DNA from: an uncultured Clostridium sp.
GTDB taxonomy: Bacteria; Bacillota; Clostridia; TANB77; CAG-508
Assembly (NCBI GenBank): GCA_947388675.1
Contig: CANDRW010000005.1
Location: 900 to 64,899, forward strand
Length of the DNA stretch: 64,000 nt
Reading direction: 5' to 3'
Positions 16,849 through 33,267 of this stretch are shown piece by piece. The position numbers were made by a program, and so were the translations under genes. The notes under the pieces are model-generated. The model saw nothing but the letters and a program-made list of their open reading frames with translations. It was not told the DNA's origin and made no database searches. The stretch's first letter is position 1. Every line of letters starts with the position of its first letter.

Positions 16849-17115
16849 ATGTTAAACATTACAGAAATTAGAATTAAAAAAATTAATAAGGGAGATTTAC
16901 TAGGAGCAGCTAGTATTTGTATAGACAATTGTTTTATTATGAATGAAATTAAATTATTGAATGGAAAGAATGGAAGATTTATTAGTTTTCCAAGTAGAAA
17001 GCTAAAAAACAAAGATATTAGAAAAAACTTCTCATATCCAATTAACAATGAAACAAGGTTGCAATTACTAGAGGCAATTTCAGAAGAATATGACAAAGTA
17101 AATGTAGAAGAATAA
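16849..17115 (+). CDS. SpoVG-family protein
   Basis: MLNITEIRIKKINKGDLLGAASICIDNCFIMNEIKLLNGKNGRFISFPSRK...YPINNETRLQLLEAI parallels the SpoVG layout (V.D.R...v......A.asi.ld..f.v..ikv..g..G.fv.mPs.k). Confidence 0.8.
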   Translation: MLNITEIRIKKINKGDLLGAASICIDNCFIMNEIKLLNGKNGRFISFPSRKLKNKDIRKNFSYPINNETRLQLLEAISEEYDKVNVEE

Positions 17116-17251
17116 GAATAGAGAAGATGCAAGAGGATAACAACTTTTGTATCTTCTTTTTTATAACTATTAGATTAATTGTAGAGTAATTTGAAATTTT
17201 ATGATATAATATTTACAAATTAATAAGAAGCAAGAATAGGGAGATTTTATT

Positions 17252-17455
17252 ATGTCAGAATGGAAATGTGTAAAGTGTGGAAATACAGAATTTGAGAAAG
17301 ATCAATTTCAAGCAACTGGTGGAAACTTTGCTAAGATATTTGATGTGCAAAATAAGAAGTTTATTACAGTAAGCTGTACCAAGTGCGGTTATACAGAAAT
17401 CTATAAAGCTGGAACAGATGCAGGAATGAATATATTAGACTTTTTAATGAATTAA
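17252..17455 (+). CDS. Zinc-ribbon protein
   Basis: Two CxxC pairs (CVKCG ... CTKCG), and an extended -10 promoter (tgatataat) upstream. Confidence 0.6.
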   Translation: MSEWKCVKCGNTEFEKDQFQATGGNFAKIFDVQNKKFITVSCTKCGYTEIYKAGTDAGMNILDFLMN

Positions 17456-17501
17456 AATATTAATAAGAAATATGGAATGGTAAGTTGGAGGTGAACAGAA
17501 G

Positions 17502-17903
17502 ATGGAGCTTGTTTTTTATTGTAGTTCATTTACGGTAGCAATATTATCTTCAATAATAGCTTGGAGTATATCAATAATAAAAAAAGAAGGCTTAGACGAA
17601 AAAAGCAGAATCATTGCTTTAGCAATACTACATTCTATCATTTACTGTTTGCTACAATTTTCTTATGGCTTTGTACAATGGACTATTAGATTTAATAAAT
17701 TTCACCAATATCCACACCGAAATCCATTTTATATATTTGTTAGTATCTGCTGTATAGTTAGTGTTATCATAATGGGAATATTTTATATTAAGTATAGAAA
17801 AGAGGAATATGGAACAGCAAAGACAGTTTTATACTTAATTGCAATAAATACATTAGCAATTATACTTGTAATGATTTTTAGTCCTTTTAAAGGATGGTTT
17901 TAG
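17502..17903 (+). CDS. Four-TM membrane protein
   Basis: Hydrophobic helices run throughout the ORF. Confidence 0.5.
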   Translation: MELVFYCSSFTVAILSSIIAWSISIIKKEGLDEKSRIIALAILHSIIYCLLQFSYGFVQWTIRFNKFHQYPHRNPFYIFVSICCIVSVIIMGIFYIKYRKEEYGTAKTVLYLIAINTLAIILVMIFSPFKGWF

Positions 17904-18031
17904 AAAATATATGAAATTTCAAGTAAACACAATTTTTAATAGAAGTAATGATTAGAATTTACATACAAAGATACAAGAAACTAAAATCTTGTGTCTTTTA
18001 TTTTAGCTTAAAAGAAGGAGGAACAAAAGAA

Positions 18032-30377: not shown

Positions 30378-30899
30378 AGTAAGCAGTGAGTGGCAAAATT
30401 AGTTTAGCCGTAAATCCAGATCCAGCAGTCAGCGGTTACACCATCAGGAATGTCCGTAAAGGTAAAGACATAATAGGAACCGCTGAAATGGAGCAAGTTG
30501 TTAAAGTAGTTTTCCTGGTTGGTTCGTACCGTTGCATCGTCAAGGACAATGCGATTACTTTCTTCGACGATGGTTAAACCAAACCGGAGATTCTGGGAAC
30601 AACTGATTTTAACAGTTGTTCCCAGACCACCAATACCACTTGCCTGAGCATCAACAACAATGTGCGGATGATCCTTGCTGATGACACCATAAGCATATCC
30701 ACTTATGGAACTTCTGGGAGTGACAGTCTCGGACGAAACATCGGAAACAGACGAAGCTGTATCCAATGTGTTAGCAGGAATCTCCGCCGCAAATGCGGGA
30801 ACAGAAAGTCCGAGTGTCATTGCCAAAGCGAGAAGCATAGAAATGAATTTTTTCATATAAAATACCTCCTAGTATGATGTATGCCACTCACTGCTTACT
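30378..30899. other. GC-rich 522-bp cassette bounded by perfect 18-bp inverted repeats
   Basis: agtaagcagtgagtggca (30378-30395) and its exact reverse complement tgccactcactgcttact (30882-30899). The two interior 60-nt lines I counted are 45% G+C, against 12% for a flanking line. Confidence 0.6.
30404..30856 (-). CDS. Secreted protein of unknown function (foreign codon usage)
   Basis: Signal peptide MKKFISMLLALAMTLGLSVPAFA/AE and an AGGAGG RBS. Codon usage is GC-rich and includes an ordinary in-frame CGG (..QNL-R-FGL..). Confidence 0.7.
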   Translation of the reverse strand: MKKFISMLLALAMTLGLSVPAFAAEIPANTLDTASSVSDVSSETVTPRSSISGYAYGVISKDHPHIVVDAQASGIGGLGTTVKISCSQNLRFGLTIVEESNRIVLDDATVRTNQENYFNNLLHFSGSYYVFTFTDIPDGVTADCWIWIYG

Positions 30900-31105
30900 T
30901 ATATAGGAAAAGGCTTTTGCCTTAACCTCAAAAAAATAATTGAATAACTATTAATTATATTTTACAATATAATAACTGAATTTAATCAAAAATATAATAA
31001 AAAGGTAAAAAAGATAATAAAAAAGTAAAAAAATAGAAAAATGAAATTTTGTAACAATTTTTAAGTTATAGTGTCTTAATATGTAGAAGGAGGAAATGAA
31101 TATGT

Positions 31106-31603
31106 ATGGATGAGATTTATAATAAATATTCTAAATTAGTCTATAATTATTTGTATTTTTTAACAGATAATAAAGAACTTGCAGAAGACCTAATGCAAGA
31201 TACTTTTTATAGTGCAATAAAGAATATAGGAAAGTTTAATTATAAATGCAAAATTAGTGTATGGCTTTGTCAAATAGCTAAAAATAAATACAAAAATACA
31301 TTAAGAAATGAGAAAAAGAAAGTTTTTATTCAGTGTTCCAATGAAATGCTTGAGGCTATAATTGATGAAAATTTAGAAAATGATGATGTGGAAAATGATA
31401 TTATTAGAAAAGAAGAAAAAGAAAAGGTATATGCGGCCCTTGAAAATCTAGAAGAACCTATTAGAGAACTTTTTTATCTGAGAATAAAATCAAATTTACC
31501 ATTTAAAAAAATAGCAAATATTTTAGGCAAAACAGAAGAGTGGACAAGAGTTAATTTTTATAGAACGAAACTTGAAATAAAGGAGAAATTGAATAATGAA
31601 TAA
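31106..31603 (+). CDS. ECF-type sigma-70 factor
   Basis: Region 2 reads AEDLMQDTFYSAIKNIGKF...SVWLCQIAKNKYKN. Region 4 reads LFYLRIKSNLPFKKIANILGKTEEWTRVNFYRTKLEIKE. Confidence 0.8.
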   Translation: MDEIYNKYSKLVYNYLYFLTDNKELAEDLMQDTFYSAIKNIGKFNYKCKISVWLCQIAKNKYKNTLRNEKKKVFIQCSNEMLEAIIDENLENDDVENDIIRKEEKEKVYAALENLEEPIRELFYLRIKSNLPFKKIANILGKTEEWTRVNFYRTKLEIKEKLNNE

Positions 31604-32543
31604 TAAATTAGAGTGCTGTGTTGTAATGGATTTATTACCAAATTATATAGAAAATTTAACATCAAAAGAAACTAAGGAACTTATAGACAATCACCTTAAA
31701 GATTGTAAAAAATGTAAAATGCAATTTTTTTTACTGAAGGAAAAAAATAATCAAAGGAATTTAAATGAGGAAGAAGAAGATCAAGAGGAATATGATTATT
31801 TAAAAAAATATAGTAAAAAGATGTTTAGATTAAAAACAGTAATCACAAGTATTTTCATTTTCGTTGCAATATTTATTTTTATTTTTGGCGGAAATATATT
31901 ATACAAAAAAAATATACTATCTAAAATGTGTAATTATTATGATAATTTAATGGAAATAGACAACTACAGCATAACTAAACAAACATTATATATCAATTAT
32001 AATACAAAAGAAATGGATAGTGATCTAAAGAAATATTATTATAAAGATGGAAAAATAAAGAGAGAAGTAAAAGAATTAGCAGATACAGAAAGTTTCAAAA
32101 AAGAGACATCAATATATTCAAAAATGCAAATAGTACCTAATGAAATTGTAGAATATATTAATACCGATACTAAAGAAGACATAACTATTTATACTACAAG
32201 AAAAGAGTATGCTAAAAATGAAATGAATCAATGGATTGAAAAAGGTAGCTTATTTAGTGGACAGTTTGATTTTACAACTTTTAAAGCTTGGTTTTTTCCA
32301 TATATTATACAAGTTAAAAATGAAGAATACGATGCAAAAAAATACTACATTCTACAATATCAATTTAATCAAGAGAGTGAGTATAAACAAATATGGATTA
32401 ACAGAGAAAATTTTAACATTGAAAGAGTAATAGAGGAAAGTAATACATATTATAGAGAGACGGTGTACGATATAAATAAAAATAGTGTTATTGATAATGA
32501 TTTAATAATTCCTAACTTAGAAAATTATAAAGAGGTAACTTAA
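31596..32543 (+). CDS. Anti-sigma factor (zf-HC2 type) with a TM helix and an extracytoplasmic domain
   Basis: The gene overlaps the end of the sigma gene. It has the pattern C..(x)..H-x3-C-x2-C (CCVVMDLL...NHLKDCKKCK), followed by a TM helix. Confidence 0.7.
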   Translation: MNNKLECCVVMDLLPNYIENLTSKETKELIDNHLKDCKKCKMQFFLLKEKNNQRNLNEEEEDQEEYDYLKKYSKKMFRLKTVITSIFIFVAIFIFIFGGNILYKKNILSKMCNYYDNLMEIDNYSITKQTLYINYNTKEMDSDLKKYYYKDGKIKREVKELADTESFKKETSIYSKMQIVPNEIVEYINTDTKEDITIYTTRKEYAKNEMNQWIEKGSLFSGQFDFTTFKAWFFPYIIQVKNEEYDAKKYYILQYQFNQESEYKQIWINRENFNIERVIEESNTYYRETVYDINKNSVIDNDLIIPNLENYKEVT

Positions 32544-32544
32544 A

Positions 32545-33267
32545 ATGGTAAAAACACTTATAGCAGACGATAACATTGAGTATTGTAAACACATTGTCAA
32601 TTGTATAACTACGAAATCAAATAATCTTCAAGTTAAATATCTTGCAACAGATGGAGAAGAAACATTAAAATTTTTGAAAAAAGATACAGTAGACTTATTA
32701 ATATTAGATTTAAAAATGCCAAAATTATCAGGAATAGAAGTTCTTAAAAAAATAAAGGAAAGTGAATCGTATGGAAAACCAAAGGTATTTTTACTTTCAG
32801 GAGATACAGAATTATTAAACCAGGCATTAATAAGTCTAGAGATAGAGGCATACTCTAATAAAATAGAGCCTATACAAATGACCTACAATAAAATTCAGCA
32901 AATTGCTAATGAAATAGAAAGAAATTTTAATGCTGATAATGTTAAAAATAGTTTTCAAAAAGAATTAGCAATATTAGGATTTAATTTTAAATACAAAGGT
33001 ACAAAATATTTATTAGAAGCAATGATATATATTTTTGAAAACAATGATATAGACTTGTTAGATAATTTGGAGAAATATGTATATAAAGTAATTGCTATGC
33101 AAAATCATAAATCTGCACATAGTATAAAAACTGATATAACGAAAGCATGCAATTTAGCATATTTGTATCAGGAAAAGAACATTATAAAAGATTACTTTTC
33201 ATTGGAATTAAAACCAACGCCCAAAGTTATAATTTCTACCATACTTACAAGGTATATGGAAAAATAG
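32545..33267 (+). CDS. Spo0A-like response regulator (receiver domain plus Spo0A_C-like DNA-binding domain)
   Basis: Receiver motifs LIADDN and DLLILDLKMPKLSGIEVLKKI. The C-terminus KGTKYLLEAMIYIFEN...VYKVIAMQNHKSAHSIKTDITKACNLAY...KPTPKVIISTIL parallels Spo0A KGYLYLREAI...[28 protein letters not shown]...KPTNSEFIA. Confidence 0.7.
   Translation: MVKTLIADDNIEYCKHIVNCITTKSNNLQVKYLATDGEETLKFLKKDTVDLLILDLKMPKLSGIEVLKKIKESESYGKPKVFLLSGDTELLNQALISLEIEAYSNKIEPIQMTYNKIQQIANEIERNFNADNVKNSFQKELAILGFNFKYKGTKYLLEAMIYIFENNDIDLLDNLEKYVYKVIAMQNHKSAHSIKTDITKACNLAYLYQEKNIIKDYFSLELKPTPKVIISTILTRYMEK

Follow-up and report, generated by a model that had tools for sequence, protein, structure and literature searches.

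Spo0A, as represented by PDB entries 1QMP, 1FC3 and 1LQ1 and by the equivalog model TIGR02875, is a response regulator of two domains, a receiver followed by a C-terminal domain with a six-helix fold (Spo0A_C), and is encoded at the chromosomal spo0A locus. Spo0A_C (PF08769) and SpoVG (PF04026) domains are enriched on mobile elements of gut Firmicutes (Jiang et al. 2019, PMC6907783), human-gut phages carry spoVG and truncated spo0A homologs that consist of the effector domain only (Schwartz et al. 2023, PMC10294663), and two or three spo0A paralogs occur in some Clostridiales (Galperin et al. 2022 preprint). The DevI protein of the conjugative element ICEBs1 is reported to delay host development and to damp Spo0A activation (PMC8032392). 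Here we analyze a 64-kb stretch of DNA (~27% GC; hereafter the window) from contig CANDRW010000005.1 of an uncultured Clostridium sp., in which an initial annotation had noticed an accessory region with relatives of Spo0A, Spo0E and SpoVG and with three sigma factors of the extracytoplasmic function (ECF) type; every feature that it named is present where it had been placed. Given the earlier reports of both domains on gut mobile elements and phages (PMC6907783, PMC10294663), their co-occurrence on the conjugative element described below, which had been called unusual, is not.

With somewhat better than even confidence, we read the three sporulation look-alikes as three separate things: the Spo0A-like response regulator (hereafter RR) as a cassette-specific transcription factor, the Spo0E-like gene as a gene controlled by phosphorylated Spo0A (Spo0A~P) and coding for a probable phosphatase, and the SpoVG-like gene as part of the element backbone. 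Spore formation governs the transmission and persistence of gut Clostridia; elements tuning sporulation would shape colonization and gene flow.

RR is encoded in a compact cassette, the parts of which are, from left to right:

30404–30856, minus strand: p150, coding for a secreted 150-residue protein and divergent from the sigma operon; homologs adjoin the cassette in eight related loci
30988–31041, no strand assigned: phased A-rich repeat array (~10 bp, AAAAGRTAA; Tandem Repeats Finder, TRF) between the divergent promoters, candidate operator of RR
31050–31076, plus strand: ECF-type promoter TGTAAC-N17-GTCT before the sigma operon, the sole match in the window
31106–31603, plus strand: ECF sigma factor, best match SigM subfamily (Sigma70_r2 53 bits; TIGR02937 84.7 bits; TIGR02950 99 bits)
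31596–32543, plus strand: anti-sigma factor of the zf-HC2 type, with an extracytoplasmic domain and a single transmembrane segment (PF13490 23.6 bits, cutoff 22.2)
32545–33267, plus strand: RR, 240 residues, receiver (Response_reg, PF00072, 55.4 bits) and Spo0A_C (PF08769, 38.9 bits, cutoff 25)
33324–33686, plus strand: 120-residue protein with a weak Arc/ribbon-helix-helix match (phrog_582, E 3e-4)

These profile scores agree with the initial annotation, which had described a response regulator with a Spo0A_C-type domain directly after an ECF sigma/zf-HC2 pair; the Pfam region 4 match of the sigma factor is weak (14.4 bits). The sigma stop and anti-sigma start overlap by 8 nt and the RR start lies 1 nt past the anti-sigma stop, an arrangement that shows the three genes to be translationally coupled. 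Overlapping sigma and anti-sigma genes are also found in the Bacillus subtilis pairs of the SigM/SigX/SigW type, whose promoters are autoregulated and which the cassette departs from in having a Spo0A-derived regulator coupled to them as a third gene.

RR shares with canonical Spo0A the two-domain plan, the receiver active site and the six-helix C-terminal fold, and TIGR02875 aligns to nearly its whole length. In an alignment with 18 family members and six more distant relatives, including five canonical-type Spo0A sequences, the receiver active site is intact, with no variation at the phospho-acceptor D55 and at least 90% conservation at D9, N10, S85 and K106. Structural models (AlphaFold2, AF2) reached mean predicted confidence values (pLDDT) of 93 and 95.6, the latter for the C-domain (residues 135–240), which was modeled separately because a fold search with full-length RR returned receiver-domain matches only. 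Searched with Foldseek, the C-domain model matched only the Spo0A C-domains 1FC3 and 1LQ1 (TM-score 0.83–0.89, root mean square deviation 1.5–1.8 Å), the next match having an E value of about 4. Identity to canonical Spo0A is nevertheless limited to 25–28%, RR has 240 residues as against ~270, with a shorter linker and a five-residue deletion after the helix following the recognition helix, and its gene, instead of occupying the chromosomal spo0A locus, follows an ECF sigma/anti-sigma pair on a mobile element.

The most telling difference concerns the recognition helix, whose residues the initial annotation had proposed to check against those that read 0A boxes. It reads SRVERAIRH[AS]IE[VL]AW in all five canonical sequences and HSIKTDITKACNLAY in RR, so that nearly every position is changed; the replacement form is itself conserved across the RR family, with the consensus NIKTNIxKATN. 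Positions 213, 214 and 217 (B. subtilis numbering) are K, T and T in RR; E213, R214 and R217 are reportedly the base-contacting residues in 1LQ1. Because the modeled C-domain matches Spo0A structures while the helix is replaced, the fold of RR is Spo0A_C, but its DNA specificity has almost certainly changed.

These properties bear on the suggestion, also made in the initial annotation, that such proteins could be decoys: RR would mimic host Spo0A, occupy 0A boxes or drain phosphate from the sporulation kinases, and thereby reprogram sporulation directly. RR is related to Spo0A over its full length, its phospho-acceptor is intact and its receiver finds its best sequence matches among solved structures in Spo0A receivers, which would suit a mimic; moreover, no histidine kinase gene was found near it, either among the called genes in four contexts or, within the window, by a crude scan for motifs, so that it would use host kinases or none, and manipulation of Spo0A by mobile elements has a precedent in DevI (PMC8032392). 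However, the recognition helix invariant in canonical Spo0A is replaced in RR, its family conserving another form, and perfect 0A boxes are not significantly enriched over the window (4 versus 1.8 expected). The identity of RR to Spo0A receivers in the fold search (only 26–30%) is similar to that to other receivers, and the genes with which its family is associated are p150 and those for ECF sigma factors, not sporulation loci. Given also that RR has its own conserved cassette with a candidate operator, we consider it unlikely to be a decoy.

That RR could be the only, housekeeping Spo0A of the host is scarcely credible. The host's canonical spo0A was not located: a search with a codon-biased pattern of the signature helix returned at least 120 loci, none of those listed coming from the closest relatives by RpoD, which makes it uninformative for this host. 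Yet RR lies within a conjugative element that relatives lack at this site and not at a single chromosomal housekeeping locus, it scores 85.3 bits against an equivalog cutoff of 200, it lacks the Spo0A signature helix, members of its family occur in tandem copies and, in two other low-GC metagenome-assembled genomes (MAGs), an RR-family member is found together with canonical Spo0A. The canonical 0A boxes present on the element (see below) also imply a canonical Spo0A in its hosts. On these comparisons RR is an old, diverged Spo0A paralog, a relative of a second type and, as the initial annotation had supposed, not the housekeeping copy.

A search of 1.84 billion cluster representatives (clusters at 50% identity) with the RR C-domain delineated a family of 396 clusters at E ≤ 1e-3, of which 89 reach E ≤ 1e-10. 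With few exceptions, members have 110–255 residues and are either receiver–Spo0A_C proteins or standalone Spo0A_C proteins of ~110–120 residues, both forms being matched by PHROG families; since only four of the top 150 clusters exceed 255 residues, few if any are full-length canonical Spo0A. Compared with the phage-borne homologs, RR is full length, with a receiver, and resides on a conjugative element. A protein search of sequenced phages that included the RR C-domain found no member of the family, and all matches in plasmid records were to canonical Spo0A or to unrelated receivers, with identities of ~31% at most along the greater part of the protein. In some genomes two or three Spo0A-like RR genes lie in tandem (L011/L012 8001–9649; L120 8001–9570). 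Several hundred clusters of regulators thus derive from Spo0A, have a new recognition helix and habitually occur with ECF sigma factors: an effector domain generally associated with a single master regulator has been put to use in other circuits, and a Spo0A_C match on a phage or conjugative element need not mean sporulation hijacking.

The pairing was assessed in 40 RR-family loci from GTDB species-representative genomes. An ECF sigma gene of any type lies within ~3.5 kb in 26 of them, eight of which have a sigma gene of the type found at 56330 in the window; the complete triplet of 31106-type sigma, anti-sigma and RR is present in 12, and a divergent p150 homolog completes the cassette in eight of these 12. 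One triplet is carried by an element that also encodes SpaA adhesins and a serine recombinase, another RR-family member is a tandem pair (L012) in an element with VirB4, sortase, CHAP peptidase and tyrosine integrase genes, and a third context is chromosomal, near ctpB, yabP and yqfD. The cassette thus recurs in many genomes of gut Clostridia, and even where protein identity has fallen to 30–45% it retains its promoter and repeats.

The control region between p150 and the sigma gene is conserved as well. TGTAAC (once TGTAAT)-N17–18-GTC precedes the sigma gene in at least seven of the eight cassette loci, so that the 31106 sigma factor has both an adjacent anti-sigma gene and a conserved ECF promoter; the motif was not found before p150 or anywhere else in the window. 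TGTAAC-N17-GTC is similar to the consensus of SigX/SigM-type promoters. In one locus (L009 6000–6556), GTAAC-N17-GTCAT occurs three times, in ~130-bp repeat units 5′ of the sigma gene. A repeat array with a period of ~10 nt, detected by TRF (a search for a strict double-repeat pattern being uninformative), is present in seven of the eight loci, with the consensus AAAAGATAA. Proteins of the type encoded at 33324 adjoin RR-family members in three loci (L100, L109 and L132), and a paralog with an RHH_3 match is encoded at 34734–35054 on the plus strand.

The divergent gene, p150, stands out by its composition: its GC content is 44.8% against 27.5% for the window, and its homologs are always richer in GC than their surroundings (36–45% versus 23–29%, a difference of 10–19 points). 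The homologs are unnamed and devoid of recognized domains but have SSISGY, ASGxGGMG and a C-terminal IWIYG in common; p150 has no match in Pfam, PHROG or PADLOC, and the PADLOC defense models gave no meaningful match. In four gut metatranscriptomes, the deepest transcript contig over a 12.5-kb stretch (23.0–35.5 kb) is that of p150 (30374–30937, depths 9–56); sigma, anti-sigma and RR are represented by short pieces of low depth. The ends of the p150 contig fit a terminator at 30349–30377 and a start just 3′ of a TATAAT at 30959–30954, which has a poor −35 element. The p150 leader contains a short palindrome with a run of T residues after it (AAGGC-N4-GCCTT, 30907–30925), which is kept as GAAAGC...GCTTTC with a T-run in all eight cassette loci and could be an attenuator or an operator. 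In the literature retrieved, neither the altered recognition helix nor a sigma/anti-sigma/RR/p150 cassette with operator-like repeats is described.

The Spo0E-like gene lies some distance from the cassette and comprises two features:

23534–23701, minus strand: 55-residue Spo0E-like open reading frame (ORF) with an SQLLD motif (PF09388 16.2–16.3 bits, below the cutoff of 23)
23726–23769, minus strand: promoter with tandem 0A boxes GTCGACA-AAC-TTCGACA (23769–23753), a 21-nt spacer and an extended −10 element TGgTACAAT (23734–23726)

The ORF, missed by the gene track, had been assigned to the Spo0E family in the initial annotation. Its existence stands, and its start is better placed at ATG 23701, which is suitably spaced from the ribosome-binding site, unlike TTG 23710. 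The family assignment stands in part: the match is below threshold, but all eight homologs match PF09388, each below threshold, and no other Pfam family (best E 5.6e-4). Seven further homologs of the ORF were found, down to 52% identity, and PYEKILxQSQxLDKY is invariant among them, including S33, Q34, L36 and D37; two homologs have SQRLD and the others SQLLD. The signature of canonical Spo0E is SQELD, with an S-Q-x-L-D core. The ORF resembles the Spo0E/YisI/YnzD phosphatases (PF09388) in its small size, in this core and in a link to Spo0A through 0A boxes; it differs from them in its score below the Pfam gathering threshold, in having SQLLD for SQELD and in its location on a conjugative element. 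We regard its product as a probable aspartyl-phosphate phosphatase of the Spo0E type.

The promoter provides the clearest link to sporulation at this locus. Read on the opposite strand, its boxes are TGTCGAA-GTT-TGTCGAC, that is, a perfect 0A box and a box with one mismatch spaced by 3 nt; the window has a single match to TGTCGAA-N3-TGNCGA, where chance would give 0.03. The 3-nt spacing is that of the tandem boxes of the abrB promoter. A 0A box that overlaps a −35-like element and is separated from the −10 element by a long spacer is typical of promoters activated by Spo0A, such as spoIIG. Boxes, spacing and the 21-nt distance to the extended −10 element are conserved in diverged variants of the element, including one in which the gene sits beside the p150 cassette, and the same architecture is found on a chromosome, where a homolog with 65% identity (78% of the query aligned) adjoins a gene for a small acid-soluble spore protein (SASP) and the surrounding sequence has diverged. 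One variant element (Logan contig L261, 1–3186) has the Spo0E-like gene next to p150 and the sigma/anti-sigma/RR operon and is devoid of ~6.5 kb of membrane-protein cargo.

It could be argued that a regulator other than Spo0A binds the tandem TCGACA boxes and that the small protein is no phosphatase, as its Spo0E profile match is below threshold and it has no relevant match among solved structures, whether searched as a single sequence or as a profile. To this view we assign a low probability: the boxes match TGTCGAA, the 0A consensus with contacts at G2, C4 and G5 (PMC3485338), they keep their spacing and their distance to the −10 element despite diverged flanks, at the chromosomal copy by the SASP gene too, and the S-Q-x-L-D core of the protein is invariant. 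Conservation of the boxes and of their spacing argues for a canonical Spo0A in the element's hosts and for its control of the Spo0E-like gene, which alone among the genes considered here looks wired to host sporulation. The idea that the region modulates the Spo0A phosphorelay, unlikely for RR, is therefore plausible for this gene, with its SQxLD core and conserved tandem 0A box.

Rap phosphatases encoded on Bacillus mobile elements, like DevI, damp Spo0A activation and delay development. Neither DevI nor Rap is related in sequence to the Spo0E-like protein, which is of the Spo0E type, apparently under Spo0A~P control, and found in Clostridia. To our knowledge, Clostridia lack the Bacillus phosphorelay. 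A Spo0E-like gene controlled by 0A boxes on a conjugative element is not described in the literature that we retrieved. The locus offers testable parts, namely a Spo0E-like gene with a conserved predicted Spo0A operator, on an element that is widespread in the mouse gut.

The third look-alike consists of a single gene:

16849–17115, plus strand: SpoVG-family paralog (PF04026 76 bits, cutoff 29.6; residues 3–83 aligned to positions 2–82 of the 82-position profile)

Like SpoVG of B. subtilis, Staphylococcus aureus and Borrelia, its product matches PF04026 over the full length; unlike them, it falls below the NCBIfam SpoVG equivalog cutoff (NF009749, 70.5 versus 108) and is encoded in a conjugative backbone. 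The score below the cutoff makes it a paralog, in agreement with the initial annotation. Relatives with 30–40% identity are found in Clostridium perfringens podophages, gut phage contigs and several plasmids, the protein also matches phrog_27338, and the gene lies between an adhesin gene and genes for a Zn-ribbon protein and DUF6100. Nothing was seen that ties it to host sporulation; genes of this kind are common in the backbones of mobile elements and phages of Firmicutes, and the product is probably a nucleic-acid-binding protein that serves the element.

In the model that we favor, an extracytoplasmic cue would lead the anti-sigma factor to release the sigma factor, and the operon would then induce itself. 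RR would bind the A-rich repeats, phased by 10 bp, between the two promoters and then activate p150, whose promoter has a good −10 and a weak −35 element, and possibly its own operon. It might be phosphorylated by an orphan kinase of the host, which we propose because no kinase is encoded nearby. Separately, host Spo0A~P would control the Spo0E-like gene, the product of which would feed back on Spo0A~P and so let the element damp or delay sporulation.

Several points weigh against this model. Its binding, phosphorylation and phenotype steps are ones that we infer from the sequence. The alignment used by AF2 contained canonical Spo0A sequences and could favor the Spo0A fold. The repeat array lies in AT-rich DNA and is tied to RR by association only, the ribbon-helix-helix-type protein encoded at 33324 being an alternative binder. 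p150 has neither an ECF promoter motif nor an assigned function, and the depth of assembled transcript contigs measures expression poorly, DNA carry-over being possible. The Spo0E assignment is below threshold, with no solved Spo0E structure matched by sequence, and the host's own spo0A was not located. Lastly, the element may no longer transfer, its coupling protein gene being fragmented (see below).

A more ambitious proposal, which we make tentatively and think improbable, joins the cassette and the Spo0E-like gene in a two-pronged device. The ECF pair would sense an outside cue and drive an RR phosphorylated by orphan sporulation kinases of the host, RR would contact its partner ECF sigma factor as Spo0A contacts sigma-A or sigma-H, p150 expression would integrate the envelope signal with the developmental state of the host, and the Spo0E-type phosphatase, induced by Spo0A~P, would delay sporulation. 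If true, the device would be a functional analogue of ICEBs1 DevI in Clostridia and its RR would belong to the first described family of ECF-partnered Spo0A-type activators.

The setting of these genes was delineated by comparison with related genomes, using the following features:

47–2274, plus strand: chromosomal dnaG (3′ part) and housekeeping rpoD (Pfam Toprim/DnaB_bind and Sigma70 regions 1.1–4), syntenic in 15 related MAGs
2797–2873, plus strand: tRNA-Met (ARAGORN, Rfam)
5673–16786, plus strand: conjugation/surface module with a VirB4-like ATPase, a protein with a type IV secretion system pilin domain, an M23 peptidase, a sortase and a 1490-residue SpaA-repeat adhesin (Pfam)
19765–21454, plus strand: gene for a VirD4-type coupling protein, broken over four reading-frame segments (stop-to-stop translation; PF02534 on 20213–20968)

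Judged by their content and synteny, dnaG and rpoD mark the host chromosome flank. The rpoD product scores above the NCBIfam RpoD equivalog cutoff (598 versus 572 bits), and its nearest sequences among species-representative genomes (78–90% identity) all come from MAGs of uncultured gut Clostridia. rpoD is followed by a small ORF and then by the tRNA-Met gene, at the end of which (position 2875) the dnaG–rpoD–tRNA-Met synteny of relatives stops in blastn and tblastx comparisons; because synteny ends there, we place the left junction of the mobile element at the end of tRNA-Met. Type IV secretion and conjugation genes follow, so that the accessory region and the mobile element supposed in the initial annotation prove to be a conjugative element. 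Further element genes recognized by domain matches code for PcfJ, DUF6100, DUF5697, ERF, a single-stranded DNA-binding protein (SSB) and a Gp3-like protein, and there is a group II intron. With a left end, VirB4-like, pilin, M23 peptidase, sortase/adhesin and PcfJ genes and a fragmented VirD4-like gene, the window displays hallmarks of an integrative and conjugative element; no integrase or relaxase was recognized in it by Pfam and PHROG searches. We conclude from gene content that the genes past tRNA-Met belong to a conjugative element integrated in the chromosome of an uncultured, low-GC Clostridia host from the mouse gut.

As for the right end, the window contains no repeat of the 3′ end of tRNA-Met and no suggestive shared 13-mer of non-AT composition that could mark an attachment (att) site, and tblastx of its right part against the flanks of relatives gave no meaningful match. 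Megablast of 16–36 kb against plasmid and phage collections gave no match either. Nineteen listed gut-metagenome runs, which belong to 10 study codes and are mostly labeled mouse gut, contain 97–100% of the words sampled from the module at 29.9–33.4 kb.

One may then ask whether the regulators are decaying, functionless cargo on a defective element. The missing integrase and relaxase point that way, as does the VirD4-type gene, which is likewise fragmented (pieces of 122, 50 and 87 residues) in independent short-read assemblies of a variant element; an element with a split gene of this type may instead rely on frameshifting or on a helper. Decay nonetheless strikes us as very unlikely for the regulators themselves, all of whose ORFs are intact. 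Their cassette, promoter and repeats withstand extensive protein divergence, 28 contigs encode an RR of identical sequence (those examined also agree in gene order), and transcript contigs cover p150, sigma, anti-sigma and RR.

Two large plus-strand ORFs of 709 and 826 residues (49079–53663), 5′ of PcfJ, have no Pfam or PHROG match and are candidates for the missing relaxase/primase functions. The group II intron lies within the element at 45400–48061 on the plus strand (Rfam D1–D4 and D5/6) and encodes a reverse transcriptase with an HNH domain (46076–47929).

The remaining features concern the other sigma factors and their neighborhood:

25068–25154, plus strand: cyclic di-GMP-I riboswitch (Rfam RF01051, 79.8 bits, gathering score 35)
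26351–27298, plus strand: ECF sigma factor with a C-terminal extension (Sigma70_r2 and r4_2; TIGR02937 73.6 bits)
56330/56366–56899, plus strand: third ECF sigma factor (Sigma70_ECF, r2 and r4_2; TIGR02937 74.1 bits; TIGR02954 116.8 bits)
56892–58046, plus strand: putative anti-sigma factor of 384 residues, overlapping the third sigma gene; its domain matches all fall below threshold

All three sigma factors (26351, 31106 and 56330) pass the ECF superfamily cutoff of TIGR02937 (42.9 bits), confirming the count given in the initial annotation, which had also noted the membrane extension of the first. In its translation, two hydrophobic segments flank an acidic loop after region 4, a fused membrane extension replacing a separate anti-sigma factor. 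Its gene is followed by three genes for membrane-anchored or secreted proteins (27325–29855) with weak matches to DUF3221/DUF4362. The third sigma gene forms a unit with its putative anti-sigma gene (56330–58046), and the same sigma type adjoins RR-family members in eight other loci. Directly 3′ of the riboswitch, an ORF (25166–25849) codes for a 227-residue membrane-anchored protein of no assigned family; on the whole, this cargo looks envelope-directed. A terminator-like hairpin is found past this ORF, at 25858–25893.

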